This document shows, piece by piece, positions 3,408-23,603 of a stretch of 64,000 bases of DNA. Position 1 is the first letter of the stretch; every line of letters starts with the position of its first letter. The stretch lies in assembly GCA_016875915.1 (NCBI GenBank), contig VGOM01000007.1, forward strand, positions 1 through 64,000. The letters run 5' to 3'. This stretch comes from Chloroflexota bacterium. Its GTDB lineage: Bacteria > Chloroflexota > Dehalococcoidia > UBA2247 > RBG-13-53-26. Below the pieces are notes generated by a model that saw nothing but the letters and a program-made list of their open reading frames with translations, made no database searches and was not told the origin of the DNA. The translations under genes were made by a program, and so were the position numbers.

Positions 3408-3519
3408 TCCCGCCTCTCCTCAGCTGTAGCCAGGGAGAGCGGGCGAGCACAATCGCCAAGGGAAGAGTGGGGTTTCTGAGCCGACTGCGGAGGCAGCGCT
3501 CCAGGCCGGGAGGGAAGAC

Positions 3520-4503: not shown

Positions 4504-4531
4504 AGCAGGCCGGGACCGGCGAGGCAGAGCT

Positions 4532-5089
4532 TTGGAGTCCTTCCACTACACGAAGGTTCCTTCCCCTTTTGGGGGACTGGCCATCCTCTGGCGGCAGGGA
4601 GACGGCGGGCCGGAGGTGCACCGGATCCTCCTGCCCAACGAGACAGGCCGAGCCGGGTCCGGGACTCGACAGAGCTTCGTCCACGCGACGCCCGCATCGT
4701 GCTCCGTCATCGCCAGCCTGGGGGAACGCATCCAACGCTGCCTCGAAGGGGAAGCGGTGGAGTTCGACCTGGCTGCCATGGCGCTTGACTCCTGCTCCGG
4801 ATTCCAGCGGAGGGTCCTTCTGGCCGACTACGGCATCCCCAGAGGCTGGGTGAGCACCTACGGCAGGGTGGCCCGCAGCCTGGGCTGTCCCGCCGGGGGC
4901 AGGGCGGTTGGGGGCGCTCTGGCGCACAACCCGTTCCCCATCGTCATCCCCTGTCACCGGGTGGTCAGAGCCAACCTGGAGCTGGGGGGCTTCGGGGGCG
5001 GCCTCGCCATGAAGCGGGCCCTGCTGGAACTGGAGGGCCTGAAGCTCTCGGAATCGGGGCAGGTGCTCACCGACAGGATCTTCTACTGA
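4532..5089 (+). CDS. ogt: Methylated-DNA-protein-cysteine methyltransferase
   Basis: IPCHRVV active-site motif, YGxxA and ALxxNP motifs. N-terminal Ada/Ogt-type domain present. TTG start at 4532 is uncertain. Confidence 0.8.
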   Translation: MESFHYTKVPSPFGGLAILWRQGDGGPEVHRILLPNETGRAGSGTRQSFVHATPASCSVIASLGERIQRCLEGEAVEFDLAAMALDSCSGFQRRVLLADYGIPRGWVSTYGRVARSLGCPAGGRAVGGALAHNPFPIVIPCHRVVRANLELGGFGGGLAMKRALLELEGLKLSESGQVLTDRIFY

Positions 5090-5144
5090 CCGCCCCATGG
5101 GGGTGATGGCGGGAGATGGGCCCCCGGATCACGGATGGCAGCCC

Positions 5145-5714
5145 TCAGAGAATATGGGTCAGCAGGATTCTGAGGCCGATGCCGATGAGGATAAGCCCGC
5201 CAACCGCTTCCGCCCATTCCCCCAGGATATGACCCGCCTTTCTGCCCAGCAGGAAGCCCAAGGCAGTGATGGCAAAGGCCACCCCTCCGATGGTCAGGGC
5301 AGCCAGGGCGATGTTCACCTCCAGGAAGGCGAAACTGAGGCCGACGGCCAGGGCGTCGATGCTGGTGGCCACGGCCAGGACCAGCAGGGCAAGCCCTCTG
5401 GTGGCATCCCTGGTTCCGGCTTCGGACTCTTCTGAATGCAGGGACTCCCAGAGCATACGGCCACCGATGACGGCCAGCAGACCGAAGGCCACCCAGTGGT
5501 CGTAGGAGGCGATGAAGTCCACTATGGTGCTCCCCACAGCCCAACCGATGGCAGTCATGAGGGTCTGGGCCACTCCAAAGGCCAGGGCGGTGCGGAGCAT
5601 CCGCCGGGAGGAAGGGCTGGCGGCGGAGATGCTCACTGCCATCGTCACGGCAAAGCAGTCGGCAGACAGACCGACGGCTATGAGCAAGAGGGAGGTCAGA
5701 TCCACCTGAGCCAT
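5145..5714 (-). CDS. mntP: Manganese efflux pump MntP
   Basis: 189-aa polytopic membrane protein with two DUF204-type repeats (SxDxFAV ... SIDALAVG). Confidence 0.75.
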   Translation of the reverse strand: MAQVDLTSLLLIAVGLSADCFAVTMAVSISAASPSSRRMLRTALAFGVAQTLMTAIGWAVGSTIVDFIASYDHWVAFGLLAVIGGRMLWESLHSEESEAGTRDATRGLALLVLAVATSIDALAVGLSFAFLEVNIALAALTIGGVAFAITALGFLLGRKAGHILGEWAEAVGGLILIGIGLRILLTHIL

Positions 5715-5842
5715 CGCACCAGTGTACGGTCAGGCCGGGCATTTGCCAAATCGCTCCGCCCGCAGGTGCGGGGCAAGGTGCCAGGCGAGGGCTGGACTTC
5801 GGCCCGGGAATGGGAGAGAATGGCTGCAGCCGGGAGTAGGGA

Positions 5843-6559
5843 ATGCCTGTGCTCTTCTTCGTAGTCCTGATCTGCGTGCTGATCGCCGGGGGCATCGCCT
5901 TCGCCATCTGGCGCCGCCGGCTGAGAGAGAAACGCATGATGGCGCTGGCCATGTGGGCTGAGTCCAACGGCTTCAGCTTCCGGGCCACGGTGGACAGGGG
6001 CATGCACTGGCGCTTCAGGGACTTCCGTTGCCTTCAGCGGGGCGACGACCGCTACGGCTACAACATCATGGAGGGAACGGCAGGCAAACGGCCGGTGTGC
6101 GCCTTCGACTACCACTATGAGACCCACTCATCGGGCAGCAAGGGACAGCGGCAGACGCACCACCACCACATGTCAGCCCTGGTCATGGAATCCGGCCTGC
6201 CGCTCAAACCGTTGTTCATCCGTCCCGAGGGCTTCCTCGACCAGGTGGCGGAGTTCGTCGGATTCGACGACATCGACTTCGAGTCGGCGGAGTTCAGCAA
6301 GCGATTCCTGGTCAAGTCGCCCGACCGCCGCTGGGCCTATGACGTGCTGCACCAGAAGACGATGGAGTTGATGCTGGCTCATCCCAACTTCACCCTGGAC
6401 TTCCAGGGGAGCCAGATCATGGCCTACCGCGACAACAAGACCCTCGCTCCGGGGGAGTTCAGCGCAGCCCTGAAGCTGATCGCGGTGATCCTGGACAACC
6501 TGCCCGAATCCGTGGTCCGGGAGCAGAGGAGCGTCAATACGGAGGTCCGACAAACATGA
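5843..6559 (+). CDS. Membrane-anchored protein, DUF3137-like LemA partner
   Basis: N-terminal TM helix plus a soluble domain with an internal His run. Its stop overlaps the lemA start. DUF3137 is recalled from memory and unverified. Confidence 0.5.
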   Translation: MPVLFFVVLICVLIAGGIAFAIWRRRLREKRMMALAMWAESNGFSFRATVDRGMHWRFRDFRCLQRGDDRYGYNIMEGTAGKRPVCAFDYHYETHSSGSKGQRQTHHHHMSALVMESGLPLKPLFIRPEGFLDQVAEFVGFDDIDFESAEFSKRFLVKSPDRRWAYDVLHQKTMELMLAHPNFTLDFQGSQIMAYRDNKTLAPGEFSAALKLIAVILDNLPESVVREQRSVNTEVRQT

Positions 6560-7116
6560 ATCCAATAGCCATCGCCGTCCTGGCCGTTGTGGTCCTGCTG
6601 ATACTTTGGGTGGCCTTCATGTACAACTCGCTGATCCGGGGCCGCAATCACTGCGACGAAGCGTGGTCCAACATCGACACCGAACTCAAGCGGCGCTACG
6701 ACCTGATCCCCAACCTGGTGAACGCGGTCAAGGGATACGCCGCGCACGAGAGGGAGGTGATGGAGCGGGTGACCCAGGCCCGGACCAACGCCATAGCCAG
6801 CCAGGGCTCGCCGGCCTCGCAGGCTAGGGACGAGAACGTGCTGGTGGACAGCCTGCGCCGTCTGCTGGCGGTGGTCGAGAAGTACCCCGACCTGAAGGCC
6901 AATCAGAACTTCCTGTCCCTGCAGGAGGAACTGGTCAACACCGAAGACCGCATCCAGAGGGCGCGGCGGTTCTACAACGGCAATGTGCGGGACTACAACA
7001 ACCGCGTGGAGGTCCTGCCCTCCAACATCGTGGCGAAGTGCTTCGGCCTGAAGAAACGGGAGTTCTTCGAGATCGAGGCCGCCGTGGAGCGGGCAGCACC
7101 TGCGGTGAAGATCTGA
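6556..7116 (+). CDS. lemA: LemA family protein
   Basis: N-terminal TM helix plus YNSLIxxRNxCDEAWSNIDTELKRRYDLIPNLV and EKYPDLKANQNF motifs typical of LemA. Confidence 0.85.
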   Translation: MNPIAIAVLAVVVLLILWVAFMYNSLIRGRNHCDEAWSNIDTELKRRYDLIPNLVNAVKGYAAHEREVMERVTQARTNAIASQGSPASQARDENVLVDSLRRLLAVVEKYPDLKANQNFLSLQEELVNTEDRIQRARRFYNGNVRDYNNRVEVLPSNIVAKCFGLKKREFFEIEAAVERAAPAVKI

Positions 7117-7161
7117 AGCAGGGCAACACCCTGCGTCAGGTGAGAGACGTCCACCTGGGCT

Positions 7162-7920
7162 TCAGATCCTGGCCGCCAGACCGCTGATGAAAGCCGTGAG
7201 GTTCCTCTCTGCGCGCCGCGCGCTTCTGAAGAGGGTGAACACGTTGATCAGGTACCACGGGTGGAGAAGGAAGGAAACCGCAGCCCTCTTCCAGAGGAGT
7301 CTGCCGTCCGCAGTGAGAACCCGGTCGAAGGGTTGGACGCCCTGCCGCGTTGTGTCCGAAATGGACCGAATGGCGATGAAGGGCACCCCCCGGGCGGAGG
7401 CTATCCTGGCAATCCAGTAGCTCTCCATATCGACGATGTCCGCCCGCAGGCCAATGCCGAGCGCCTGCGTCTTCTGAGTGCCGGAGGCCAGATGCCTCAC
7501 CGTGACACCGGTGCCAAGGAGGACGCGGGGCACCCCCTGCCCTGCCGTCTCTGAGGCCAGGGCGAGCAGCCGGGCATCGGCATGACAGGCCTCAGACTCC
7601 CCCTCCCACCCCAGAGGTCCGGACGCGCAATGCAGGGTCGAGCAGACAATCACGTCACCGATGGCCAAGTCCCGACTCAGCGCCCCGGCGAAGCCCAAGG
7701 AGATCACAGCGGTGACCGGGTAGCGCTGCAGAGCAAGATGAGCCGCAGCAGCAGCCTTCTCCCTGCCCATCCCGGTCCGTGCCAGGAGGCAGTCCCGGCC
7801 TTCCAGCCTGCCCCGGTACACCTTGCCGCCCGGGCCGGCGATGACCTCCTCAATGGCCATCCTTCCCCGCAGGCCAGCTATCTCCTGGTCGAATGCACCC
7901 AACAGAGCCAGCATCGGCAC
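7162..7920 (-). CDS. Nucleoside phosphorylase family protein (MTA/SAH nucleosidase, futalosine hydrolase or HpnG-like)
   Basis: PNP_UDP_1-type fold signals: GMGREKAAAAAHLAL, VISLGFAGAL, DMESYWIARIA, FIAIRSISD. Confidence 0.65.
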   Translation of the reverse strand: MPMLALLGAFDQEIAGLRGRMAIEEVIAGPGGKVYRGRLEGRDCLLARTGMGREKAAAAAHLALQRYPVTAVISLGFAGALSRDLAIGDVIVCSTLHCASGPLGWEGESEACHADARLLALASETAGQGVPRVLLGTGVTVRHLASGTQKTQALGIGLRADIVDMESYWIARIASARGVPFIAIRSISDTTRQGVQPFDRVLTADGRLLWKRAAVSFLLHPWYLINVFTLFRSARRAERNLTAFISGLAARI

Positions 7921-7965
7921 CCCAAGGCGAGCAGACGATGACTTGTGCCGTCGTCGGCTGCCGGG

Positions 7966-9939
7966 CTAGGTCTTCTCGGCGGGTTTCTGGCCGAAGTACT
8001 TCATGAGTATGCCGGCCAAGCCGTCAACTGATGACCCACCGGAGACCATCACGTCCGGTACGAACTTGAGGTTCTTCTCGGCGAGCTGCCCGATGGTGTT
8101 CACCAGCACGGCTCCATCCTGTCCCAGAGCCGTCTGCTGGGCCTGGTAGCCCTTGGCCTTGCCGACACCGATGGCCTCGAAGGCGGCGCCATCGCCCTTC
8201 CCGATAGCTTCCCGGGAGGATCCTTCGCCTTTGCCGATGGCTTCCCTCTTGGCTCCTTCGGCCTTGCCCATCCTCTCGGTGTAGAAGGCTTCGCCATCGG
8301 CTTCGGCCTTCCTCTGCTCAGCCTTGTTCTTCTGAATGGACACGCCCACTTCGGCAGCGGCCAACTCGGCCTGTTTGTCCGCAGTACCCCGGGACTTCTC
8401 TGTCTGAATGCGCTGCTGCTGGGCCTCCTGCTGCTTCTTGTACGTAGCGATCTCCTGGTTGGCGATCTCTCTGGCAGTCAGGACATTGACTAGCTGCTCA
8501 GGCAGAACAACGTCCTGGATGTAGACACCCCTCGTTTCCACTTTGTACTGGTCAAGCTTGGTCTGAACATGCTCGAAGGCTTCTTCCTGAACCCGCTGCC
8601 TGGTTTCGATGAACTGAACGGCCGGCATGCTCTGCAACTTGTCCCTGAAGTGATTGCCCACAGCCCCCTGGAGCACCTCGTCGACCAGGTTGAGCATGGT
8701 GCCGACCATGGAAATGACCACGGGGGCGTTTCTGTCGGAGACGTGGATCTGAACCTGGAGGTCGATGCTGAACTTGAAGCCCTCTCTGCTCTTGGCCAGG
8801 ATGGTGGACAGGTTGGCGTCGAGCTTGTGCGCCCGAGACCGGGCCTCGGCCCAGTTGAGGGTGAGTATGGCAGTGGGAACGACCTCGGCGTTGTAGCAGT
8901 GGGGATTGATAGGGTATTTCCCCGTCCTGAGAGGCTCTCTCCATATCCCACGGTGCCCCGGACGGACCAGTGTGCCGAACTTGAACTCCTCTCCGGTGAC
9001 GCTCTCCGACGGCAGGCCGACGTAGGACTTGATGACGGCGACCTCGCCCTGCTCCACCACCAGCATGGGAACCTTCTGGACAGAGACCAGGAAGGGATTG
9101 AGGTTGTACGCGCCGTAGAGAAGGACGTCGTGCTGCAGACCAATCTTGCCGCCGCTGTCGAGGAAGGTCTGGAAGTCCTGGTAGTTGTTGTGGACGCTGT
9201 TCTTGCTGCCGAGGACAGCTTCGATGATGTCTATGTCCCCCTGAGTTGCCTCCAGGGCCCTGATCTCGCCGAATCCGCCGATTCGGCTGGCGATATCACC
9301 GGCCAGGAGGGGATCACCCTCGTAGGTGGTGACCACCCCGACCATGTCCTTCCCGCTGGCGTCAGGGGTAATGACCACTACTCCAAGCTGGTCAGGAGTG
9401 AGCCCGAAGTGCTTCGGCTTGAGTTCCTCCTTGGTATTCAGTAGTTCGGGAAGGATGGGCACGCCATAGACACTCTGTCTGGTGAGCACCAGGAATGCCA
9501 CCGGATGTATGGGGGCGGCGGTTCCCGGCGGCAATACCGGCCTTTGAACGCCCTTCTGGCCGCCGTTTTCGATGAAGGCCTTGAGGCTGGTGAAGTTGGA
9601 GAACTCCTTCTTGTAGACCGCCGACTTGGCCCCGATGGGCAGCGGATCGCCAACCTGAGCGATGACCACGCCGATTTCGCCCGCTGGAACCTGGACCCAG
9701 GGATGGCGTTCCACGGAATACACCGGCCAGAATCTGAAGAAGAATCCGGGCATGATGAGCCCCGCCTGGTAGCCAGCTTCTCCTTCGAAGCCTATGGGGT
9801 TGTCCTCCGGCAGTTTCTTGCCGAAGCGTTTGCGCACCAGGCCAACTTCCAGCGCCCCGATGAACCCTGTGGAAGGATAGATGAGGACAACAGCGATGAC
9901 AACGAGGGCAATCGAACCGAGAACGATCCCCAGAACCAT
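7966..9939 (-). CDS. Flotillin-like SPFH/band-7 membrane protein
   Basis: 657 aa. N-terminal TM helix and a long C-terminal Glu/Ala/Lys/Gln-rich coiled-coil repeat region (KQQEAQQQRIQTEK ... AEQRKAEADGEAF) typical of bacterial flotillins (YqiK/FloT-like). Confidence 0.6.
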   Translation of the reverse strand: MVLGIVLGSIALVVIAVVLIYPSTGFIGALEVGLVRKRFGKKLPEDNPIGFEGEAGYQAGLIMPGFFFRFWPVYSVERHPWVQVPAGEIGVVIAQVGDPLPIGAKSAVYKKEFSNFTSLKAFIENGGQKGVQRPVLPPGTAAPIHPVAFLVLTRQSVYGVPILPELLNTKEELKPKHFGLTPDQLGVVVITPDASGKDMVGVVTTYEGDPLLAGDIASRIGGFGEIRALEATQGDIDIIEAVLGSKNSVHNNYQDFQTFLDSGGKIGLQHDVLLYGAYNLNPFLVSVQKVPMLVVEQGEVAVIKSYVGLPSESVTGEEFKFGTLVRPGHRGIWREPLRTGKYPINPHCYNAEVVPTAILTLNWAEARSRAHKLDANLSTILAKSREGFKFSIDLQVQIHVSDRNAPVVISMVGTMLNLVDEVLQGAVGNHFRDKLQSMPAVQFIETRQRVQEEAFEHVQTKLDQYKVETRGVYIQDVVLPEQLVNVLTAREIANQEIATYKKQQEAQQQRIQTEKSRGTADKQAELAAAEVGVSIQKNKAEQRKAEADGEAFYTERMGKAEGAKREAIGKGEGSSREAIGKGDGAAFEAIGVGKAKGYQAQQTALGQDGAVLVNTIGQLAEKNLKFVPDVMVSGGSSVDGLAGILMKYFGQKPAEKT

Positions 9940-10105: not shown

Positions 10106-10134
10106 TTTGACAATGGATTGGCCTGTGGTAGTAT
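10106..10134 (+). promoter_or_regulatory. Candidate sigma70-type promoter for the small ORF at 10167
   Basis: TTGACA at 10106-10111, 16-17-nt spacer, TAGTAT at 10128-10133, about 33 nt upstream of the GTG start. Confidence 0.3.
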
Positions 10135-10166: not shown

Positions 10167-10316
10167 GTGTTCTGTGGCACTGGCCCATGTGCATGGGGCT
10201 TCTGGACCGGCGTAGGCATACTGATAGGGGCCGCCGCCTCAGGGGTGGGGCTTCTGGGCTTTCTGCTCTACCGCCGACTGAAGAAGCCCGGCAAGCCGTC
10301 CACGGCTCAACAGTAG
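10167..10316 (+). CDS. Small hydrophobic peptide (49 aa) with CGTGPC motif, one TM helix and a basic tail
   Basis: GTG start 7 nt after a GGAGG RBS. Translation VFCGTGPCAWGFWTGVGILIGAAASGVGLLGFLLYRRLKKPGKPSTAQQ. Not in the ORF track because it is short and GTG-initiated. Confidence 0.4.
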   Translation: MFCGTGPCAWGFWTGVGILIGAAASGVGLLGFLLYRRLKKPGKPSTAQQ

Positions 10317-10551: not shown

Positions 10552-12759
10552 TCAGGAGGCCTTGGCCACTTCGACCAGGGCGGTGTTGTAGGGGAAGGAG
10601 CCGCCGGGTGAGTGCCTGTCAGGGGTGAGGACGTTGGCGCAGCCACCTCTGTCCACGCGGTCCGGATCCGGGGCATACCAGGCCCCGTGGGGCACATCGA
10701 CCACGCCGGGCATGATCCTCTCCGTGACGCGGGCCTTGATGAGTATCTGCCCCCGGTCGTTGAACACCCTGACCATATCGCCATCGTTGATGCCACGAGC
10801 ACGGGCGTCTTCGGAGTTGATCAGCAGGGCATGATCCTGGAGTTCCCTCAGCCAAGGGATGTTCTCGAACTGACTGAGGGCCCGCCTCTTGAGATGGGTG
10901 GTGATCAGCTGCAGCGGGTACTTCCGGGCCAGGGGATCGTTGCGGCCTTCCCAGCTCCCGATGTACTTGGGGACGGCGGGCAGACCGGGTATGCCCAGGT
11001 CCGCCCACTGCCGTGAGTAGATTTCGATCTTCCCCGAGGGAGTGGGGAAGGGGTTGGCGGCCGGGTCTTTCACCTGAGCCCTGAAGGCAACGTAGGGCTC
11101 GATGGTCTTCAAGCGGTACACACCCCGCTTCTTGAAGCGGCGGTAGTCATAGACGCCGTTGTTCATGGCCCGTTCCTGCAGTATCTGCTCCTCAGTCTTG
11201 TCCAGATAGCCCTTGATGCCCAGGCGCTCGGCCAGTTCGGCGGCAATGCGCCAGGGGGGCCGGGATTCCCCCAGTGGTTCGATGACCTTGTTGACGCAGC
11301 CGACGTAGGCCGAGCCCACCCCCGGGGTGACGTCGTTCCTCTCCATGAAGGTGGCCACCGGCAGTATGATGTCGGCGAACTTGGCCGTGGGCGTCATGAA
11401 CTGCTCTTCGACGACGATGAACTCCAGGGAGTTCAGCGCCCGGGCGATCTTGTTGCTGTCGGGGAACTGGACCAGGTAGTTGCACTGGGCGACCACCAGC
11501 GCCTTGTAGTCGGCGAAGTAGCCGCCGGCCCTGCCTCTGAGGATAGCATCAGCCAGCCTGGTGAAGTGGACCCGGGGTCTGCGGTAGAAGAGGGGGACCT
11601 TGCGGTCCGGCGGGAAGGCCCTCTCCACGGGGTTGGGCGCCCGGTCTATGGCGCTGGTCATGGAGTTCACCGGGTAGGGGAAACCACCCATGACCGACTC
11701 CCAGGCCCGGGCTCCGGCGTCCCCGCCGTGGATGCCGACGTTGCCGGTCATGGCGGCCAGGGTGATGGCGGCACGGTGGAACTGCTCGCCGTAGGCGGTG
11801 CGGCCCGGGGCGATGCCAGCCATCAGCGCCGCAGGCCGAGTGGTGGCGTACTGCCGGGCAAGCTCGACGATGGTCCCAGCAGCGACGCCGGTGATACCCT
11901 CCGCCCACTGCGGCGTCTTCGCTACACCATCCTCCGAGCCCAGGACGTAGTCCTTGAACCGGTCGAAGCCGACGGTATGCGCGGCGATGAAGTCCCGGTC
12001 GTAAAGCTTTTCGTCGACCATGACATAGGCCATGGCGATAAGCATGGCAGTGTCCGTCCCCGGCCTGATCGGTATCCAGCTGTCGGCGAAGGCGGCAGCG
12101 CTGTCGGTGTGCCGGGGATCAACGGAGATGATCGTGGTGCCGGCCTCCCGGGCACGGGCCAGATACCAGCAGGTGTTGGGGCCGGTGATGGTGCTGGCCG
12201 GGTCCCAGCCCCACATGATGATCAGCCTGGAGTTGAGTAAATCGTCGCGGGTGTTGCTGGCGAACCAGGTGCCGTAGGTAACCATCGAAGCGTACACCCC
12301 GGCCTGAAAGGAGGTCACTCCCCAGGGCGAGGTGTAGCCGCCGGCCATGCTCAGCAGGCGGTCCAGGGCCCCGAAGTTGTTCAGGGAGCAAACATCACCA
12401 GTCATCTGGGCCAGGATGATGGCTGGCGGACCGTAGGCATCCCTGACCCTCTTCAGCTCGGCGGCAACGGTGTCCAGGGCCTCGTCCCAGGAGGTGCGCT
12501 GGAAGCGGCCCTCCCCCCGGGGACCCGCCCGCTTCAGGGGATAGAGCAGGCGGTCCGGGGCGTAGACCCTCTGGCGGTAGGCCCGCCCCCGGAGGCAGCC
12601 GCGGAGCTGGGGCTCCTCGCCGTCGTCGCTCTCTATCCTGGTGATGACGCCGTCTCTGACGTGGACCTTGAGGAGGCAGGCACCGCCGCAGTGGCTGGCG
12701 CACATGGTGGCGATGACCCTGTCGCCGCCGGTCGATGTGCCGCCTTTGCCGTGACTCAT
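10552..12759 (-). CDS. Molybdopterin (Mo/W-bisPGD) oxidoreductase catalytic subunit, DMSO-reductase family, cytoplasmic, copy 2
   Basis: 735 aa. N-terminal CxxxCxxxC...C [4Fe-4S] motif (CASHCGGACLLKVHVRDG), no twin-arginine signal, C-terminal molybdopterin dinucleotide-binding beta-barrel region. Close paralog of 13226..15436. Confidence 0.85.
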   Translation of the reverse strand: MSHGKGGTSTGGDRVIATMCASHCGGACLLKVHVRDGVITRIESDDGEEPQLRGCLRGRAYRQRVYAPDRLLYPLKRAGPRGEGRFQRTSWDEALDTVAAELKRVRDAYGPPAIILAQMTGDVCSLNNFGALDRLLSMAGGYTSPWGVTSFQAGVYASMVTYGTWFASNTRDDLLNSRLIIMWGWDPASTITGPNTCWYLARAREAGTTIISVDPRHTDSAAAFADSWIPIRPGTDTAMLIAMAYVMVDEKLYDRDFIAAHTVGFDRFKDYVLGSEDGVAKTPQWAEGITGVAAGTIVELARQYATTRPAALMAGIAPGRTAYGEQFHRAAITLAAMTGNVGIHGGDAGARAWESVMGGFPYPVNSMTSAIDRAPNPVERAFPPDRKVPLFYRRPRVHFTRLADAILRGRAGGYFADYKALVVAQCNYLVQFPDSNKIARALNSLEFIVVEEQFMTPTAKFADIILPVATFMERNDVTPGVGSAYVGCVNKVIEPLGESRPPWRIAAELAERLGIKGYLDKTEEQILQERAMNNGVYDYRRFKKRGVYRLKTIEPYVAFRAQVKDPAANPFPTPSGKIEIYSRQWADLGIPGLPAVPKYIGSWEGRNDPLARKYPLQLITTHLKRRALSQFENIPWLRELQDHALLINSEDARARGINDGDMVRVFNDRGQILIKARVTERIMPGVVDVPHGAWYAPDPDRVDRGGCANVLTPDRHSPGGSFPYNTALVEVAKAS

Positions 12760-13223
12760 GCCTGACCCTGCTGCTTCTGGTACCAGAGCAGCTCGATCAT
12801 GACACCACCGACGCTGTCGGTGCCCAGGTAGGCGAAGGCCATCCAGCCCATGTTGTGCCAGAAGACGGGCTCAACGCCCTTGCTCTTGAAGCGGGCCAGC
12901 CAGCCGTGGAAATCGTCCACCTCGAAGCCCAGATGGTGCAGTCCCTCTCCCTTGGCGGCGAGGAACTCGGTGTAGATGCTCTCGCCCTGCAGAGGTTGGA
13001 TCAGCTCGATCTGTACGGGGCCGGACTGGGCGAAGGCCACCTTGATGCTGGTGCTGGTGGGCCGGCCACGGAGGAGGGCGCCCTCGAACTTGACCTCCGG
13101 GATGATGCCGAAGGGACCGATGCCGAAGGTGGAGTGGTAGAAGGCAGCGGTCCTGTCGACGTCCCGGACCACGATGCCTACCTGACTCAGCGGGGGAAGA
13201 CTCACGGGTGATTGGTCTTTCAT
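12756..13223 (-). CDS. VOC (glyoxalase/bleomycin-resistance/extradiol dioxygenase fold) family protein, copy 2
   Basis: Start taken at MKDQSPVSL. Conserved GIVVRDVD...HHLGFEVDD motifs. Paralog of 15433..15909. 4-nt overlap with the downstream MoCo gene. Confidence 0.7.
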   Translation of the reverse strand: MKDQSPVSLPPLSQVGIVVRDVDRTAAFYHSTFGIGPFGIIPEVKFEGALLRGRPTSTSIKVAFAQSGPVQIELIQPLQGESIYTEFLAAKGEGLHHLGFEVDDFHGWLARFKSKGVEPVFWHNMGWMAFAYLGTDSVGGVMIELLWYQKQQGQA

Positions 13224-13225
13224 GT

Positions 13226-15436
13226 TCAGATCCTTTCTACCTGCACCAGGGTGGTGTTGGAGCAGAAGGCCCCTCCCGGCGAGTGCTCGTCCCGGGTGAG
13301 GACATTGCAGCACCCTCCCCGGTCAACCCCATTCTCGTCGGGGTCATACCAGGCCCCTTGAGGGATGTCGACCACTCCGGGCATGATCCGCTCCGTGACC
13401 CTGGCGGGAATGACCATCCGGCCCCTGTCGTTGAACACCCTGACCATGTCGCCATCATTGATGCCCCTGGCCTGAGCGTCGGCGGAGTTGACGGACACGG
13501 CCTGAGTCTGGAGCTCGCGCAGCCAGGGCAGATTGTCGTACTGGGAGTGGGCCCGCCTCATGATGTGCGTGGTGACAAGCTGCAGCGGGTATCTGGCAGC
13601 AAGGGGATCACGGCGGCTCTCCCAGGTCTCGATGTACCTAGGGATGGGCGGAATCCGGGGATCGTCCATGTCCGCCAGGCGCTGGGAGTAGATCTCGATC
13701 TTGCCGCTGGGGGTGGGGAAGGGATTGTTCTGCGGATCTTCGATCTGAGCCTTGAAGGCCACAAACGGTTCGGCCATCCTCAGCTTGTGGATGCCGTCCT
13801 TCTTGAAGACATCGTAGTCGGCGATGTCGCGGCTGCCCTTGACGATCTCCCGCAGCCAGCCGTCCTCCGTATGCTCGCTGTAGTCGGCGACGCCTAGCTT
13901 CGCGGCCAGATCCATGCCGATCTGCAGGTGTGATCTGGCTTCGCCCGGCGGCTCGGCGGCCTTGTTCATGTAGCCGTAGAATCCCGTAGCGCCGTCCAGG
14001 GCAATGTCGTTCTTCTCCAAGGAGTTGCAGGTGGGCAGGACCAGGTCGGCGAACCTGGCCCCGGGGGTCGTGAACTGCTCGAAGACGACGACGAACTCCA
14101 GGCTCTTCAGGGCCCGGACGGCCTTGTTGACGTCGAGGTACTGATTGGGGTAGTCGGTGTCCACCAGATAGAGCAGCTTGTAGTCGGCGGGGTAGCCGCC
14201 GGCCCTGCCCCTGAGGATGGCATCGGACATCTTGGCGGTGTTGACCTGGCCACGCCTCATGGCCACGCCGAAGGCGGGGAGGGCATTGCGGCGGGGCGGG
14301 GCGTCGGCCTCAACGGGGTTGCGGGGCGATTTCGGACCACGGCCCAGGCTGAAGTAGGCCGTGGGACCGGCGGTGGGCCAGGAGCGTCCACCGGAGCTCC
14401 CGCCGTGGACGCCGACATTGCCGGTCATGGCGGCCAGGACCATGGCCGCCCGGTGATACTGCTCGCCGTAGGCGGTCCGTCCCGGAGCGATGCCGGCGAT
14501 GAGGGCCGCCGGCGTGGCGGTGGCATATTCCCTGGCGAAAGCAGCGATGGTGGCGGCGGGCACGCCGGTGATGGCCTCTGCCCAGGCGGGCGTCTTGGCC
14601 ACACCGTCCTCCAGTCCGAGGACATAGTGCTTGAAGTGATTGAGGCCCACGGTGTAGGTATCCAGAAAGGCCTGGTCCTGCAGGTTCTCCTTGATGATGA
14701 CGTAGGCCATGGCGATGAGCATGGCGGCGTCCGTGCCGGGGACGATGGGGATCCATTGCTGGGAGAAGGTGGCGTTCGATTCGGTGTACCGGGGGTCGAC
14801 GGAGACAATCCTGATCCCGGCCTCCCCGGCCTGGGCCAGGTACCAGGCGGTGTTGGTGTTCTGAATGGTCACCGAGGGATTCCAGCCCCACATGATGATA
14901 AGGCGGGAGTTGAGCAGGTCATCGCGGGTGTTGCCGGTGTCCACGGTGCCGTAGGTAGCCAGCTCGGCGAACAGTCCCCCGTCGAAGGAGAAGGTGCCCC
15001 AGACATCCGAGCAGCCACCGATCATATTCAGCACCTTGTAGTGGCACATGGCGTTGTGCAGCACGGAGGTATCACCTCCGGACCACTTGAAGAGGATGGC
15101 GGCGGGACCGTAGGTCTCCCGGACCCGGTTCAGCTCCCGGGCCAGGGTGTCCAGGGCCTCTTCCCAGGAGATCCGGGTGAACCGGCCCTCTCCGCGCTGG
15201 CCGACTCTCTTCAGAGGGTGCAGCAGCCGGTCGGGGGCATACATCCGCTGGCGGTAGGCCCGGCCGCGAACGCAGGCCCGGAACTGGGGATCGGCGCCGT
15301 CATCGGTCTCGATCCTGGCCACGACGCCGTCTTTGACGTGGACCTTGAGGAGGCATGCCCCGCCGCAGTGGCTGGAGTGCGTGGAGTAGATCACCTCCTC
15401 CGAGGCGGGCTGCCGATGGTCATGGTGAGCGCTCAT
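13226..15436 (-). CDS. Molybdopterin (Mo/W-bisPGD) oxidoreductase catalytic subunit, DMSO-reductase family, cytoplasmic, copy 1
   Basis: 736 aa. N-terminal CGGACLLKVHVKDG [4Fe-4S] motif. Collinear paralog of 10552..12759 with long identical blocks (LLNSRLIIMWGW, DRGGC). Confidence 0.85.
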   Translation of the reverse strand: MSAHHDHRQPASEEVIYSTHSSHCGGACLLKVHVKDGVVARIETDDGADPQFRACVRGRAYRQRMYAPDRLLHPLKRVGQRGEGRFTRISWEEALDTLARELNRVRETYGPAAILFKWSGGDTSVLHNAMCHYKVLNMIGGCSDVWGTFSFDGGLFAELATYGTVDTGNTRDDLLNSRLIIMWGWNPSVTIQNTNTAWYLAQAGEAGIRIVSVDPRYTESNATFSQQWIPIVPGTDAAMLIAMAYVIIKENLQDQAFLDTYTVGLNHFKHYVLGLEDGVAKTPAWAEAITGVPAATIAAFAREYATATPAALIAGIAPGRTAYGEQYHRAAMVLAAMTGNVGVHGGSSGGRSWPTAGPTAYFSLGRGPKSPRNPVEADAPPRRNALPAFGVAMRRGQVNTAKMSDAILRGRAGGYPADYKLLYLVDTDYPNQYLDVNKAVRALKSLEFVVVFEQFTTPGARFADLVLPTCNSLEKNDIALDGATGFYGYMNKAAEPPGEARSHLQIGMDLAAKLGVADYSEHTEDGWLREIVKGSRDIADYDVFKKDGIHKLRMAEPFVAFKAQIEDPQNNPFPTPSGKIEIYSQRLADMDDPRIPPIPRYIETWESRRDPLAARYPLQLVTTHIMRRAHSQYDNLPWLRELQTQAVSVNSADAQARGINDGDMVRVFNDRGRMVIPARVTERIMPGVVDIPQGAWYDPDENGVDRGGCCNVLTRDEHSPGGAFCSNTTLVQVERI

Positions 15437-15909
15437 TTCTCATCCTTCCCGCGTTTGGCCAGATGAAACAGCTCGAAGGTGACGCCGCCGATTCTGTCGG
15501 TGTTCAGATAGGCGAAAGAGGCCAGTCCCGGAAGCACCTGGTGGAACACCGGCCGCACTTCCTCCCTGCCGAGCTGAGACAGAAGTCCATCGTAGTCGTC
15601 CACGCGGAAGCGGAGGTGGTGCAGGCCTTCACCCTTGTGCCTCAGGAACTCTGAATGGGGCGTATCGCCCTCCAGGACCTGGATCAGCTCGATCTCGATG
15701 GTTCCGGAGCGGGCGAAGGCCATCTTCAGCCGGCAGCGGCCCGGCCTGTCCCTGAAGATGAACCCCTGCAGGTCAACCTCACTGATCTGGAAGGGGCCCC
15801 AGCCGAAGAGGGCGGTGAGATGCTCGACGGCCCGGTCAACATCGTGAACGACAATGCCCACCTGTTCCACCGGAGGCAGCTTCACCGCAGGCTCCAGACT
15901 GTCCGACAT
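15433..15909 (-). CDS. VOC (glyoxalase fold) family protein, copy 1
   Basis: 158 aa. GIVVHDVD...EGLHHLRFRVDDYD motifs. Overlaps the downstream MoCo gene by 4 nt. Confidence 0.7.
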   Translation of the reverse strand: MSDSLEPAVKLPPVEQVGIVVHDVDRAVEHLTALFGWGPFQISEVDLQGFIFRDRPGRCRLKMAFARSGTIEIELIQVLEGDTPHSEFLRHKGEGLHHLRFRVDDYDGLLSQLGREEVRPVFHQVLPGLASFAYLNTDRIGGVTFELFHLAKRGKDEK

Positions 15910-15925
15910 CAGAGCACAACTCCAA

Positions 15926-16498
15926 CTAATGGGCGATACCGGCAGGCTCCGACTTGGGCTTGAAGATCACGGCCGGCCGGATCTTGGTCTTGTAGGTGAA
16001 TCCCACGGCATGGTGGGCCCCGCCATACTTGGCCTGGAGATCCTCCAGCGGCCCGGCATCCAGGGCCCGCATGGGGCAGCCAGCGACGCAGATGGGCGCT
16101 TTGCCCTCGGCCCAGCGCTCGAGGCAGAAGTCGCACTTCTCCATCTTGGCGTTTTCTTCGGCGCCGAACTGAGGGGCCTTGTAGGGGCAGACCTCGAGGC
16201 AGCGCTGGCAGGAGTCCTTGCCCAGGCAGAGCCCCCGGTCGACGACCACTATGCCATCCTCATCCCGCTTGGTCATGGCGTCCACGGGGCAGGCGGGGAT
16301 GCAGGCCGGGTGGGTGCAGTGGTAGCAGGCAGCAGCCATGAAGGCCACGAAGGGGTGCGGATACTTGCCCTTCTCTATGGTGGTCACCCGCATCCAGCTG
16401 GCCGGGCCAGCGGGGACATCATGCCAGTCCTTGCAGGCCACCACGCAGGCGTAGCAGCCGGTGCATCTGGTTTGGTCAAAGTAGAAAGCCAACTGCAT
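15926..16498 (-). CDS. DmsB-type 4x[4Fe-4S] ferredoxin electron-transfer subunit
   Basis: 190 aa. Four Cys clusters (CTGCYACVVAC, CYHCTHPACIPAC, CQRCLEVC, CDFC...CVAGCP) in the DmsB/PsrB arrangement. AGGAGG RBS. Confidence 0.85.
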   Translation of the reverse strand: MQLAFYFDQTRCTGCYACVVACKDWHDVPAGPASWMRVTTIEKGKYPHPFVAFMAAACYHCTHPACIPACPVDAMTKRDEDGIVVVDRGLCLGKDSCQRCLEVCPYKAPQFGAEENAKMEKCDFCLERWAEGKAPICVAGCPMRALDAGPLEDLQAKYGGAHHAVGFTYKTKIRPAVIFKPKSEPAGIAH

Positions 16499-16575: not shown

Positions 16576-18372
16576 TCATGAGGCAGAACGCCCCTTCCTG
16601 GCCCTCGTGAGCAGCGCAATGGCGGTCAATCCGGAGATGGCAAGACCTGTGGCCAGAAGCCACCACCAGGGGAAGAAGGGGCTCCGAGAAGGCGTCTCCC
16701 CACCGGGAACGTCGGGGCCCTCTGGGGCCGCCGGCGGGTCGGGAGTTGATGGCGGGGCATCCCCATCAGGGGTCACGGTTGCCGCGGTGAAGCGCTCCAC
16801 GGCCTCACGCGAGAGGTTGCCGGCGGTGTCGACGGACACGGCACGGATCTGGTACGCTTGGCCATCATCCAGCGCGGGCAAGGCGCAGATCCAAGTGTCG
16901 GTGCCCTGGCCATCAAGCCATCTCTCTGCCTGGACCCAGGCCGAGCCATCCCAGCAAGCGCGGTCGCTTCCTCTGCCAATGGCCACCTGCACCCTGGCGA
17001 TCTGCCCCGGCGGGGCATCCGAAGCAGTGCCGCTGACGGCGGACAAAAGTCCCACCAAATCGGGGACGTCCTCAATGGTGACCGACGGAGGAGCAGTGTC
17101 AACGGTGAAGGATTGTCCGGTCAAGGCACTCACGTTCCCGGCTGCATCAGTGGCCATCAGTTCCACCGAGTGGGCTCCGTCGCTGAGCTCTGTGACCGTG
17201 AAGATAATATCTTCGTCGGGCTCGTCGAACAAGCCATCGGCGGCAGCAGCCGCAATCCAGTGGCCGCCATCAAGCTCATATTGTACCAGCACGATCGGGC
17301 TGGTGGCATCCGAGGCGCTGCCGCTGAAGCCGGGTGTGCTGTCGCTCGTAACACTGCTCCCGGCAGGGAGTAGCAACACGCTGGGGGCGGTGGTATCCGT
17401 GACGAAGCTGGCGGAGAGGTAGCCGGCGGCTGCGGTGGAGTTGCCCAGAACGTCGGCAGACCGCAGCTCAACGGTGTGGGAGCCATCGCTGAGGCCAGAG
17501 AAAGCAACGGCGAACTCCTCCACCGGCTCATCGAAGGCCCCATCGGGCGATGAGGCCGCCGTCCACTGCCCGCCATCCAGGGAGCCCTCCACCGCGGCCG
17601 CCAAACTGCCGGCGTCCGCGGCGGTGCCATGGAGGATGACGTTCGAGGCGCCGATGTAGGCGGGGAGGGGTTCCAGAGCGAGAGAGGGCGCCGTGGTGTC
17701 TATGGCGAAGGTGTCGGCCACCGGGGCGCTGACGTTGCCAGCGGCGTCCCTGGCCCTAGCCTGCACGGTGTGCGGACCATCGGCGAGGGCAGCGGTGGTG
17801 AAGGAGTAGCCCTCAGAGAGGGAGTCGAAGGCGCCGTCAACGGCCGCCGCCACGGACCACTGTGCGCCGTCGAGGCGGAACTCCACCGCGGCTATGTGAC
17901 TGGTGGAATCCTGGGCCGAACCGGTCACGGTGGGGGTGTTGTCGGCCGAGGCGTCGGGAGACAGAGGGACGATGGAGATCATGGGTGGAACGGTGTCGAC
18001 ACAGAAGACGGCAACGGCGTAGTCGTCGGCCGCCGTGGTGTAGCCCGCCTTGGTCGTAGCTTTGACATCGGCCTGATGCCATCCATCATCGAGATCCCCG
18101 GCAATGAAGGTATAGGGTTCGACGGCTGAGCCTCCGAAGGCTCCATCAACGGGGGCCGCCGGCAGCCAGGGGCCGTCGTCAACCCTGTATTCAACAGAGG
18201 CGACGGGGCTGTTCTCATGTGCGGCCGTCCCGGTGAAGCTGACTGTATGAGCGGCGGCGTACTCCGGGTACGAATCAAGGCTCACGGAGGGGGCTGGCCC
18301 ATCCGCGTGAGCAGTGGCGGGCAACACCGGCGTGAGGAACACGGCGATCAAAGCCAGGGCCGATCCCAGCAT
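16576..18372 (-). CDS. Secreted cell-surface protein with about five tandem Ig-like repeats and a C-terminal TM anchor
   Basis: Signal peptide (MLGSALALIAVFLTPVLPATAHA). Roughly 90-aa repeats sharing DTTAPS...GTAxDxxS...VEFRLDGGxWxAA..DGAFD. C-terminus PFFPWWWLLATGLAISGLTAIALLTRARKGRSAS is a hydrophobic helix plus basic tail. Confidence 0.65.
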   Translation of the reverse strand: MLGSALALIAVFLTPVLPATAHADGPAPSVSLDSYPEYAAAHTVSFTGTAAHENSPVASVEYRVDDGPWLPAAPVDGAFGGSAVEPYTFIAGDLDDGWHQADVKATTKAGYTTAADDYAVAVFCVDTVPPMISIVPLSPDASADNTPTVTGSAQDSTSHIAAVEFRLDGAQWSVAAAVDGAFDSLSEGYSFTTAALADGPHTVQARARDAAGNVSAPVADTFAIDTTAPSLALEPLPAYIGASNVILHGTAADAGSLAAAVEGSLDGGQWTAASSPDGAFDEPVEEFAVAFSGLSDGSHTVELRSADVLGNSTAAAGYLSASFVTDTTAPSVLLLPAGSSVTSDSTPGFSGSASDATSPIVLVQYELDGGHWIAAAAADGLFDEPDEDIIFTVTELSDGAHSVELMATDAAGNVSALTGQSFTVDTAPPSVTIEDVPDLVGLLSAVSGTASDAPPGQIARVQVAIGRGSDRACWDGSAWVQAERWLDGQGTDTWICALPALDDGQAYQIRAVSVDTAGNLSREAVERFTAATVTPDGDAPPSTPDPPAAPEGPDVPGGETPSRSPFFPWWWLLATGLAISGLTAIALLTRARKGRSAS

Positions 18373-18444
18373 CCCAAGGCTCGCCACGAGGGGACACCGG
18401 GTCAAGGCAGGCCCCCGGGAATGGCAGCCTCCCACAGGCGCGAC

Positions 18445-20781: not shown

Positions 20782-20841
20782 GCTCGGGGAACAGGGGGCG
20801 TGCCGGGGATGGTGCGTCACTCACCTCGGTTGGACGAATCC

Positions 20842-21585
20842 ATGCTGACCAGACAGGACCTGGAACGGTACGATCGGCAGATACGGTACGAGGGGTTCGG
20901 TGAGCAGGGGCAGCGCAGGCTCAAGGCATCGCACGTGGTGGTGGCCGGCGCCGGGGGGATCGGCTGTCCGGCCTCGATGTACCTGGCCTGTGCCGGGGTG
21001 GGGAGAATCACGGTCATCGACCACCAGTCCGTGGAACTGTCCAACCTCAACCGGCAGGTCCTGCACTGGGAAGAGGACATCGGCCGGCCCAAGTCTGTTT
21101 CCGCGGCGGCCAAGCTGAGGAACCTGAACCCTTCGACGGCCATCTCGCCAGTGACTGCCGAGATCACCGCGGCCAATGCCGGTGACCTTGTCAGAGGAGC
21201 CAGCGCAGTGCTGGATGCCATGGACAACTTCGAGACCAGAGCCGTCCTGAACCGGGCCACTGTGGCCAAAGGGATCCCCTTCATCCACGGAGGGGTCTGG
21301 GGTCTGTGCGGCCAGGTGACCACCATCATTCCAGGGAAGACACCGTGCCTGGCCTGCCTCTATCCGGAGAAGCCGGCGGAGAAGAGTCCTTTCCCGGTCT
21401 TCGGCGTGGCACCGGCCATGGTGGCCATCATCCAGGCCATTGAGGCCATCAAGATAATCGCCGGATTCGGCCGCCTGCTGGCGGGCCAGATGCTCTACTT
21501 CAACCAGGCCACCATGGACTTCAGCTTCCGCGAAGTGATCAGAAGGCCGGGTTGCCCGGTTTGCGGGCAGGCGGTCAAGCGATAG
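20842..21585 (+). CDS. ThiF/MoeB-family E1-like adenylyltransferase
   Basis: RYDRQI, VVVAGAGGIGCP Rossmann motif, C-terminal CxxC...CxxC zinc site. Start taken at MLTRQDL; the ORF opens at 20800. Confidence 0.8.
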   Translation: MLTRQDLERYDRQIRYEGFGEQGQRRLKASHVVVAGAGGIGCPASMYLACAGVGRITVIDHQSVELSNLNRQVLHWEEDIGRPKSVSAAAKLRNLNPSTAISPVTAEITAANAGDLVRGASAVLDAMDNFETRAVLNRATVAKGIPFIHGGVWGLCGQVTTIIPGKTPCLACLYPEKPAEKSPFPVFGVAPAMVAIIQAIEAIKIIAGFGRLLAGQMLYFNQATMDFSFREVIRRPGCPVCGQAVKR

Positions 21586-21953: not shown

Positions 21954-22367
21954 TTGAATCAGGAAGAGCAGATACTGGATACTTACCGTATAGTGGCCGT
22001 GGTGGGTCTGTCGCCGGATGCAGAACGCCCCAGCTTCAGGGTGGCGTCATATCTCAAGGCACAGGGCTACAGGATCATCCCGGTGAACCCGAGGCTCAGT
22101 CAGGTACTGGGTGAGACCTGCTATCCGGAGTTGACCTCGATACCGGAGCCGGTGGAGGTGGTGGACATCTTCCGGCGGGCCGAGGAAGCGCCGGCGATCG
22201 TGGACCAGGCCATCGCCGTCGGGGCGAGGGCGGTCTGGATGCAGGAGGGAATAGTGAACGAGGCCGCAGCCCGGAAGGCCAGGGAGGCCGGGCTGCTGGT
22301 GGTGATGGACAGGTGCATGCGCAAAGAGCATCTGAAAGCAACAGAGAAGAAGTCAGGAGGTAGGTGA
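21954..22367 (+). CDS. CoA-binding domain protein (YccU/YneT-like)
   Basis: IVAVVGLSPDAERPSFRVASYLKAQGYRIIPVNP and VWMQEGI motifs. Confidence 0.75.
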   Translation: MNQEEQILDTYRIVAVVGLSPDAERPSFRVASYLKAQGYRIIPVNPRLSQVLGETCYPELTSIPEPVEVVDIFRRAEEAPAIVDQAIAVGARAVWMQEGIVNEAAARKAREAGLLVVMDRCMRKEHLKATEKKSGGR

Positions 22368-22870: not shown

Positions 22871-22938
22871 CTGCGCCGTTCCCGAAGCAATCGAACACCT
22901 GATGTCAGCGGCTCCCTGTCCGGAGCCGGGCGGAGGCT

Positions 22939-23517: not shown

Positions 23518-23603
23518 AGTCCATCCCGTCTCCGCCGGCGACACAGCCGAGCCGCTGAAGGAGTCATGGTGGCCCCATCCGACAGGTGAGGAGGAGTCAG
23601 GCG

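Follow-up and report, generated by a model that had tools for sequence, protein, structure and literature searches.

We analysed a 64,000-nt stretch of DNA from a Chloroflexota bacterium of the class Dehalococcoidia (assembly GCA_016875915.1, contig VGOM01000007.1, positions 1 to 64,000), referred to below as the window. Open reading frame (ORF) listing and domain scans revealed that positions 10552-16498 of its minus strand are occupied by one tightly packed operon of five co-directional genes (Table 1). The operon begins with the gene of an iron-sulfur (FeS) subunit, followed by two successive modules, each composed of a gene for a protein of the vicinal oxygen chelate (VOC) superfamily and a gene for a catalytic subunit of a molybdenum cofactor (MoCo) enzyme. 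We refer to these products as VOC2 and MoA2 for the first module, and VOC1 and MoA1 for the second. An earlier preliminary description of the window had proposed this gene order, and the ORFs and Pfam matches bear it out. The start of VOC1 shifted slightly, to the ATG at 13223 used in the public gene call; the upstream GTG is not used.

Read from the sequence, a gap of 16 nt lies between the FeS gene and VOC2 and a gap of 2 nt between MoA2 and VOC1, and each VOC gene overlaps the catalytic gene that follows it by 4 nt. Both overlaps read ATGA, in agreement with the translational coupling proposed in the preliminary description: each catalytic subunit is coupled to its own VOC protein. A promoter and terminator scan found no convincing promoter 5' of the FeS gene and no minus-strand terminator 3' of MoA1. 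MoA1 and MoA2 share 58% identity over 738 columns, that is over their full length, and VOC1 and VOC2 share 50% identity (E=1e-47); judged by these alignments, the similarity within both pairs is far beyond chance. FJ020_03650, annotated as hypothetical in a Chloroflexi metagenome-assembled genome (MAG), has a sequence 100% identical to that of VOC2, and the closest loci belong to Dehalococcoidia and Chloroflexia MAGs.

The catalytic subunits belong to a Tat-less clade of DmsA-like proteins

The best NCBIfam model for both catalytic subunits was TIGR02166 (DmsA/YnfE subfamily), with 645.2 bits for MoA1 and 682.3 bits for MoA2. Both scores fall below the curated cut-off of 777.7 bits. The second-best family was bisC_fam (417-431 bits). 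Pairwise alignment of MoA2 with Escherichia coli DmsA extended from the motif of the FS0 cluster through the C-terminus at 40% identity, and the best matches among solved structures were Rhodobacter dimethyl sulfoxide (DMSO) reductase and trimethylamine N-oxide (TMAO) reductases (about 280-286 bits, with 286 bits for DMSO reductase). The likeness to acetylene hydratase and pyrogallol transhydroxylase suggested in the preliminary description did not hold for these subunits, as MoA2 matched these enzymes in two stretches each with 138.8 bits (acetylene hydratase, 2e7z) and 179.9 bits (transhydroxylase, 4v4c), and carries a Ser ligand. In other genomes, however, enzymes resembling acetylene hydratase are partners of the VOC clade found here, as described below.

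The putative molybdenum ligand, a Ser, lies within WGTFS in MoA2 and WGVTS in MoA1; its counterparts in the alignments are the Ser ligand of E. coli DmsA and Ser147 of Rhodobacter DMSO reductase (DorA). The FS0 motif reads C20-x3-C24-x3-C28...C55 in MoA1 and H20-x3-C24-x3-C28...C55 in MoA2, where the spacing is of the NarG type and the first ligand is a His. This His is characteristic of the MoA2 clade, MoA1 having Cys, and several other variants of the first FS0 ligand were seen among the relatives of MoA. After the second FS0 Cys, MoA2 reads GGAC and has no Asp there. Furthermore, the GGTMTRSWPPGN segment of E. coli DmsA has no counterpart in MoA2, which is shorter around this point in the pairwise alignment, and Tyr114 and Trp116 of Rhodobacter DMSO reductase are likewise without counterparts in the MoA2 alignment. 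Therefore, the substrate of the MoA proteins need not be DMSO.

Neither MoA1 nor MoA2 has a twin-arginine translocation (Tat) leader: an RR motif is missing, FS0 starts as early as residue 20, and the DmsA hidden Markov model (HMM) aligns to the two proteins from profile position 36-42, past the Tat leader. The same is true of their relatives, as no Tat leader was found among the N-termini of about 90 of them (43-84% identity), all of which start only a few residues ahead of FS0. Among about 5.8 billion proteins searched, more than 4,300 relatives of MoA were found at E<=1e-50, of about 730-750 aa. Those with a named source come from Chloroflexota/Dehalococcoidia, plus one Deltaproteobacteria MAG, and their usual name in Joint Genome Institute (JGI) annotations is 'anaerobic dimethyl sulfoxide reductase subunit A'. 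In a neighbour-joining (NJ) tree without bootstrapping, E. coli DmsA and YnfF formed the sister group of the entire Tat-less MoA clade. Judged by their scores below the cut-off and by the 40% identity to E. coli DmsA, the two proteins, whose phylogenetic placement the preliminary description had called for, lie outside the characterised clades. By these alignments, MoA1 and MoA2 are predicted Ser-ligated catalytic subunits of the DmsA/YnfE type, binding bis(molybdopterin guanine dinucleotide) (bis-MGD), within a large clade devoid of Tat leaders.

A DmsB-like FeS subunit without a membrane anchor

With E. coli DmsB and YnfG, the FeS subunit shares 40-42% identity, and its best NCBIfam match was TIGR02951 (DMSO_dmsB), with 168.5 bits against an equivalog cut-off of 214.1. 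It contains 16 Cys in four ferredoxin-type motifs, and therefore enough for four [4Fe-4S] clusters. These observations fit the earlier proposal of one DmsB-like subunit shared by both catalytic subunits.

Neither a signal peptide nor a transmembrane helix was detected in the FeS subunit. Searches of the whole window with tblastn for homologues of DmsC, YnfH and DmsD returned nothing better than E=0.04, and no gene of the TorD/DmsD family was found in it. No DmsC/NrfD-type gene was found either in the Pfam-annotated neighbourhoods of VOC-linked clusters that we looked up. The view of these enzymes as soluble and cytoplasmic, with neither Tat signal nor anchor, is thereby upheld: as predicted from its genes, the operon encodes a soluble, cytoplasmic oxidoreductase system of the DmsAB type with a molybdenum or tungsten (Mo/W) bis-MGD cofactor.

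The VOC proteins have an altered epimerase-like site

Both small proteins are members of the VOC superfamily, scoring 76.6 and 60.8 bits with Pfam, above the gathering threshold of 27. An AlphaFold (AF2) model of VOC2 computed from a 25-sequence alignment reached a predicted local distance difference test (pLDDT) score of 90.9, and exhibited the expected order of strands and helices in paired beta-alpha-beta-beta-beta modules. The best PDB matches of the model were the uncharacterised protein 3gm5 and methylmalonyl-coenzyme A (CoA) epimerases (MCEs), with a Foldseek probability to the MCEs of 1.00. Scores with the MCE model TIGR03081 were 52.9 bits for VOC1 and 43.0 bits for VOC2, below its cut-off of 114.95.

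Relative to these fold relatives, the VOC active site appears altered. In a profile alignment with the S. coelicolor MCE, a metal-ligand His is replaced by Gln16 and metal-ligand Gln60 by Glu74; His98 and Glu146 align with the other two metal ligands and are the only ones retained. The catalytic Glu43 of the MCE is replaced by a nearly invariant Cys59 in proteins of the VOC2 type, and by Ser in VOC1 of this genome. Gln16, Glu74, His98 and Glu146 are kept family-wide, and a Q-E-(H/Q)-H-E signature was present in nearly all of about 90 members. That these four residues do not vary speaks for a functional metal site in the VOC proteins. We also considered Gln16 as a marker of MoCo-linked VOC proteins or of lost catalysis, and rejected it since the residue is present with or without a MoCo neighbour.

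The VOC-MoCo pairing recurs in specific subclades

The distribution of the pairing was surveyed from both sides. On the VOC side, 80 loci, one genome per species, were screened for MoCo and FeS genes, adjacency being defined as a MoCo gene at most 1.5 kb away on the same strand. Such a neighbour was present at 17 of the 28 species-level loci whose VOC protein shares at least 49% identity with a reference VOC. At about 48 loci with more distant VOC proteins, no MoCo gene lay beside the VOC gene on the same strand. A neighbourhood survey had been suggested in the preliminary description, and it reveals that the adjacency is not unique to this genome and recurs in many MAGs. The order found in the window, FeS-VOC-MoA-VOC-MoA, was also observed in L004, L006, L010 and L171. 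The other arrangements are FeS-VOC-VOC-MoA (L007, L012, L016), FeS-VOC-MoA-MoA (L014, L022, L159) and VOC-FeS-MoA (L008, L009, L017).

Junctions between VOC and MoCo genes are tightly constrained, with a 4-nt overlap (ATGA or GTGA) in 16 of 25, and an overlap or a gap of at most 11 nt in 24 of 25. Chance adjacency of VOC and MoCo genes was rejected on these survey and junction counts. Moreover, NJ trees showed that VOC1-type genes occur only before MoA1-type genes, VOC2-type genes before MoA2-type genes, and that a third MoA group is likewise preceded by a VOC group of its own.

On the MoA side, the same screen was applied to 80 metagenome loci (43-81% identity). Most of them, with relatives at 43-65% identity, exhibit the classical MoA-then-FeS order without a VOC gene, which is found directly upstream only in L089, L107, L110 and L159. 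Three further loci with MoA relatives at 62-78% identity (L001, L002, L003) also lack a VOC gene; among them, a 78%-identical relative has neither a VOC nor an FeS gene nearby. Hence, the VOC protein is not the obligate partner that the preliminary description had assumed: it is a feature of particular subclades, all with an FeS gene upstream, and a clade-specific accessory.

The two modules were also followed separately. MoA1 belongs to a separate subclade with orthologues in L004, L006, L007, L010, L012, L016, L028 and L110, and orthologues of MoA2 at 81-84% identity are likewise preceded by a VOC2-type gene. Since each copy has its own orthologues and its own co-diverging VOC subclade, the duplication is old. 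A tandem duplication as such, which the preliminary description had put forward, stands on the paralogy of both pairs; a recent event in this genome, or an assembly artefact, was rejected, as the copies are only 58% and 50% identical and fall into separate old subclades. The duplicated module is inherited as a unit, sometimes losing one VOC or one MoA gene.

Two other arrangements were noticed at the surveyed loci. A distant VOC gene, whose product is 26-32% identical, lies just after and convergent to the MoA-FeS pair of another Tat-less subclade in L103, L104, L105, L113 and L127, and encodes the canonical His at ligand position 1 where it could be aligned. Either a second, separate MoCo/VOC association or common ancestry of the contigs could account for this arrangement. 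In L002, from the Deltaproteobacteria MAG, an 864-aa molybdopterin protein lacking the Fe4S4 domain is encoded ahead of the MoA relative, together with its own FeS subunit and a TctABC transporter, a set that resembles a transhydroxylase-like module.

The same VOC clade accompanies other anaerobic enzymes

We observed that genes of the same VOC clade also lie directly upstream of genes for acetylene-hydratase-like (AHY-like) enzymes (L013, L015, L020, L025, L026, L027, L172); the pairs of L013, L015, L025, L027 and L172 occur in MAGs of Dehalococcoidia and Thermodesulfobacteriota. The VOC proteins of all seven loci are 50-67% identical to a reference VOC, and their junctions resemble those of the MoA loci: the 4-nt overlap was found in four of the five scored (L013, L015, L020, L027), L025 having a 2-nt gap. 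The overlap in L172 is also 4 nt by public gene calls, and L026, which is cut by a contig end, was left out of junction scoring. The AHY-like enzymes share just 26-28% identity with MoA and match acetylene hydratase (2e7z) over its full length (E=2e-116). They retain the Cys at the tungsten-ligand position and have a Gly in place of the catalytic Asp13; therefore, they are probably not acetylene hydratases. The AHY-like loci have no FeS subunit gene, and genes for Zn-dependent alcohol dehydrogenases or short-chain dehydrogenases/reductases (SDRs) are next door in L015 and L025-L027.

In L036 and L077, genes for a sister group of VOC1-type proteins immediately precede those for glycyl-radical enzymes (PFL2/dehydratase type) and their activase. 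In L030, the glycyl-radical enzyme gene is on the opposite strand, with an SDR gene between it and the VOC gene. For the glycyl-radical enzymes beside a VOC gene, the best equivalog was sulfopropanediol dehydratase, below the cut-off. Other close VOC genes lie amid genes for thiolase, acyl-CoA dehydrogenase, MaoC, enoyl-CoA hydratase and SDR, and one VOC cluster comprises two tandem genes for flavin adenine dinucleotide (FAD)-dependent oxidoreductases with SDR, enoyl-CoA hydratase and LEH/SnoaL-like genes. The common denominator of these contexts is anaerobic organic catabolism by way of aldehydes, ketones, enols or CoA esters.

Other features of the window

The tungstate transporter that the preliminary description had placed 20 kb away was recovered in part. 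The ABC transporter best matched TupA (148 bits), TupB (175 bits) and WtpC (308 bits), all below the NCBIfam cut-offs, so that a TupA/TupB-like character stands and a formal assignment does not. The TupA-like gene, which starts at 36567, is directly preceded by a full-model match to the Moco/Tuco riboswitch (Rfam RF01055, 74.7 bits). Together, they show cofactor-regulated oxyanion uptake, compatible with either tungsten or molybdenum in the MoA enzymes. A regulator with a GntR helix-turn-helix (HTH) domain and an oxyanion-binding domain is encoded just before the riboswitch.

On the 5' side of the operon, 77 nt upstream of the FeS gene, lies the gene of a large Ig-like surface protein (Big_13/Big_3_3) with a C-terminal anchor. 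Such a gene is found upstream of the FeS gene in three lineages (the window, L007, L014) and is absent there in L004, L006 and L171. At the other end, a 49-aa ORF that is not called in the public record converges on the end of MoA1; it has a GAGGAGG ribosome-binding site (RBS), a Cys-x5-Cys N-terminus and one clear transmembrane (TM) helix, and is preceded by a good sigma-70-like promoter. The flanking CutA1, Ig-like surface protein, Band_7, GNAT and M20 peptidase genes were considered as a clue to the pathway and rejected, as they reflect lineage synteny only.

Farther away, the window encodes a ThiF/MoeB-family protein, two rubrerythrins, a flavin mononucleotide (FMN) reductase and a Crp/Fnr-type regulator. 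Synteny with the L004 and L006 clusters extends to the rubrerythrins, the FMN reductase and the Crp regulator, and synteny with L171 to the rubrerythrins and the reductase; this region is an oxidative-stress/anaerobic island near the operon. Finally, two Fe-S flavoenzymes of the old yellow enzyme (OYE) family, like BaiCD and 2,4-dienoyl-CoA reductase, are encoded in the window, and an OYE-family-like gene lies directly upstream of the FeS-VOC-MoA cluster of L107.

Table 1. Positions of the operon genes, of other window features and of related loci.
Sequence	Feature	Positions	Strand	Length	Remarks
Window	FeS subunit, DmsB/YnfG-like	15926-16498	-	190 aa	First gene of the operon; GGAGG RBS; Pfam Fer4_11
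Window	VOC2	15433-15909	-	158 aa	Pfam Glyoxalase_4, 1.8e-16
Window	MoA2	13226-15436	-	736 aa	Pfam Molybdop_Fe4S4, Molybdopterin, Molydop_binding
Window	First FS0 ligand of MoA2	15367-15378			Residues 20-23; His
Window	VOC1	12756-13223	-	155 aa	Pfam Glyoxalase_4, 2.2e-21
Window	MoA1	10552-12759	-	735 aa	Pfam Molybdop_Fe4S4, Molybdopterin, Molydop_binding
Window	First FS0 ligand of MoA1	12690-12701			Cys
Window	Sigma-70-like promoter	10107-10134			Before the 49-aa ORF
Window	49-aa ORF	10167-10316	+	49 aa	Convergent on MoA1 end
Window	Ig-like surface protein	16576-18435	-		Big_13/Big_3_3
Window	Oxidative-stress/anaerobic island	20800-21585 and 22364-24921	+		ThiF/MoeB-family gene, two rubrerythrins, FMN reductase, Crp/Fnr-type regulator
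Window	GntR-HTH regulator	35164-36360			Oxyanion-binding domain
Window	Moco/Tuco riboswitch	36352-36475	+		RF01055
Window	ABC transporter	36567-39241			TupA/TupB-like
Window	OYE-family flavoenzyme	50851-52833	+		BaiCD/2,4-dienoyl-CoA-reductase-like
Window	OYE-family flavoenzyme	58943-60877	-		BaiCD/2,4-dienoyl-CoA-reductase-like
L013	VOC + AHY-like pair	784-3482
L015	VOC + AHY-like pair	6001-8675
L025	VOC + AHY-like pair	3502-6124
L027	VOC + AHY-like pair	2999-5712
L172	VOC + AHY-like pair	7001-9675
L036	VOC + glycyl-radical locus	3183-7342
L077	VOC + glycyl-radical locus	6001-9925
L030	VOC + glycyl-radical locus	1652-5457
L103	Distant convergent VOC	6773-7162
L104	Distant convergent VOC	6913-7314
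L105	Distant convergent VOC	3667-4056
L113	Distant convergent VOC	6982-7380
L127	Distant convergent VOC	2647-3048
L007	Ig-like surface protein	3907-5370
L014	Ig-like surface protein	216-2477
L002	864-aa molybdopterin protein and MoA relative	4540-7791			Deltaproteobacteria MAG

Discussion

The MoA clade is cytoplasmic and without an anchor, part of it is tied to an epimerase-fold VOC protein, and this VOC protein is shared with AHY-like and glycyl-radical enzymes. Taken together, these observations argue for organic catabolism and not for respiration. Our best reading, which we put forward tentatively, is that a soluble oxidoreductase with two catalytic subunits and a proton-transfer VOC protein form a two-step catabolic module for an organic compound, and that the operon does not encode a respiratory DMSO reductase. 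The FeS subunit, through its four clusters, would link a soluble electron carrier to FS0 and the Mo/W centre. At this centre, a step of the oxygen-atom-transfer type would take place: an S- or N-oxide would be reduced, or an organic molecule would lose or gain an oxygen function. The substrate or product of MoA would undergo a proton transfer (isomerisation, epimerisation or keto-enol tautomerisation) catalysed by the VOC protein at its Gln/Glu/His/Glu metal site. A redox step at Mo/W followed or preceded by such a proton transfer would make up the two-step module.

Several points weigh against this interpretation. The replacement of the MCE catalytic Glu by Cys or Ser and of the first metal His by Gln means that the catalytic competence of the VOC proteins is assumed. 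Many close MoA relatives have no adjacent VOC gene (L001, L003, L090 and most MoA-side loci), and the second MoA gene of L014, L022 and L159 lacks a VOC gene of its own; therefore, the VOC protein is dispensable for the fold of MoA and probably for basic catalysis. A DMSO/selenate reductase still gives the top HMM match, which is compatible with a plain S-/N-oxide reductase, and the immediate neighbours (CutA1, the Ig-like surface protein and a Band_7 flotillin-like protein) give no hint of a pathway. Furthermore, the NJ trees carry no bootstrap support values.

The strongest competitor, which we nonetheless consider rather unlikely, is an ordinary cytoplasmic S-/N-oxide reductase for repair or detoxification, comparable to E. 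coli BisC and acting for example on free methionine sulfoxide or on DMSO/TMAO, next to a co-transcribed VOC protein that is a mechanistically independent stress or detoxification protein. It accords with DmsA/YnfE and then bisC_fam as the best families, with the conserved Ser ligand, and with the rubrerythrins, FMN reductase and Crp regulator of the conserved neighbourhood 6-8 kb away. Source annotations and the Dehalococcoidia literature also treat the relatives as DMSO/TMAO reductases; in single-cell genomes of Dehalococcoidia, such genes were proposed to encode these reductases without experiments (PMC4959651; PMC7506110). However, the MoA scores lie under the subfamily cut-off, the GGTMTRSWPPGN segment of DmsA and Rhodobacter Tyr114 and Trp116 have no counterpart in MoA2, and DmsA paralogues can differ greatly in chemistry: a 2026 study of those of Salmonella indicates that likeness to DmsA does not fix the substrate (PMC13524816). 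An independent VOC protein would also leave the conserved 4-nt overlap, the co-diversification and the recurrence beside AHY-like enzymes unexplained.

In another explanation, the VOC protein is a non-catalytic, stoichiometric third subunit, or a dedicated assembly or stabilisation factor that does for Tat-less MoCo enzymes what DmsD/TorD/NarJ-type chaperones do for exported or membrane enzymes. The overlap implies near-stoichiometric synthesis, VOC subclades co-diversify with MoA subclades, the VOC proteins stay 53-67% identical while pairing with two MoCo families that are 26-28% identical, and the window has no gene of the TorD/DmsD family. This explanation is unlikely, however, since sister VOC genes lie upstream of genes for glycyl-radical enzymes, which carry no molybdenum cofactor, and relatives also occur in CoA-ester, SDR and hydratase clusters. 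The conservation of four putative metal ligands in about 90 members is typical of an active enzyme, and many MoA relatives have no adjacent VOC gene. Moreover, we know of no chaperone of the VOC fold.

A broader proposal, which we regard as doubtful at present, is that members of the VOC clade are stoichiometric subunits that dock on oxygen-sensitive DmsA-like, AHY-like and glycyl-radical enzymes, and either hand over the substrate or directly accept the product, be it an enol, a carbonyl or a chiral compound. If true, cytoplasmic Mo/W enzymes with two active sites, serving the anaerobic breakdown of organic matter in sediments, would make up a class so far unrecognised, and the abundant 'DMSO reductases' of Dehalococcoidia would not be DMSO reductases. 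Lastly, a respiratory DMSO reductase with a membrane anchor encoded elsewhere, which the JGI names and the DmsB-like FeS subunit might suggest, is very improbable given the lack of a Tat leader in any of the roughly 90 family members and of a DmsC/NrfD-type gene in the window or in the looked-up VOC-linked neighbourhoods; an enzyme facing the cytoplasm could not, as such, support quinol-linked energy conservation of the DmsABC kind.

The reading of the operon as a catabolic module matters for metagenome studies, where DmsA-like genes of Dehalococcoidia are routinely scored as DMSO respiration; together with related Chloroflexi, the Dehalococcoidia rank among the most abundant bacteria of marine and freshwater sediments. 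The analysis also brings to light a VOC subfamily with an unusual Gln/Glu/His/Glu site, and the operon is a clonable five-gene unit with which a catabolic role can be tested.

Comparison with known systems

Like acetylene hydratase (2e7z), the AHY-like Chloroflexi proteins are cytoplasmic, single-subunit enzymes of the DMSO reductase family. Unlike acetylene hydratase, the MoA proteins of the window have a Ser ligand, and MoA2 has no Asp after the second FS0 Cys and scores far lower against 2e7z than against DMSO reductase. Pyrogallol-phloroglucinol transhydroxylase (4v4c) has a similar topology, as a cytoplasmic alpha-beta enzyme with an FeS beta subunit, an organic substrate and no membrane anchor. 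Its ligand is also a Ser, and its alpha subunit lacks FS0, whereas FS0 is present in MoA (Pfam Molybdop_Fe4S4); to our knowledge, the transhydroxylase has no VOC partner. VOC1 and VOC2 share the two-module VOC fold with MCE and 3gm5, and 3gm5 also has a Gln at ligand position 1. In contrast, the His/Gln/His/Glu site of MCE and its paired catalytic Glu were not found in the VOC proteins.

Closer in taxonomy, the marine Dehalococcoidia single-cell genomes DEH-J10 and DEH-C11 belong to the same phylum and, by their description, encode DmsA-affiliated subunits (PMC4959651). Neither a VOC partner, nor a shared FeS subunit, nor a cytoplasmic topology is mentioned for these genes in that literature. 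More generally, no described MoCo system with a VOC or glyoxalase partner was found in the literature searched, in line with the statement of the preliminary description that none is known in the DMSO reductase family; a conserved, coupled epimerase-fold partner of cytoplasmic enzymes of this family is undescribed there.

The architecture of the operon is nearest to those of E. coli DmsABC and YnfEFGH, with which it shares a four-cluster DmsB-type subunit, the FS0 motif and the Ser ligand. It differs from both in lacking a Tat leader, a YnfH/DmsC anchor and DmsD (anchor and DmsD having been sought in the window), in having the FeS gene first, and in coupling a VOC gene to each catalytic gene. 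As in YnfEFGH, where the tandem DmsA-type paralogues YnfE and YnfF are served by the single DmsB-type subunit YnfG, two paralogous catalytic subunits are encoded alongside one FeS subunit, and the FeS-sharing layout of the operon thus has a precedent in YnfEFGH.

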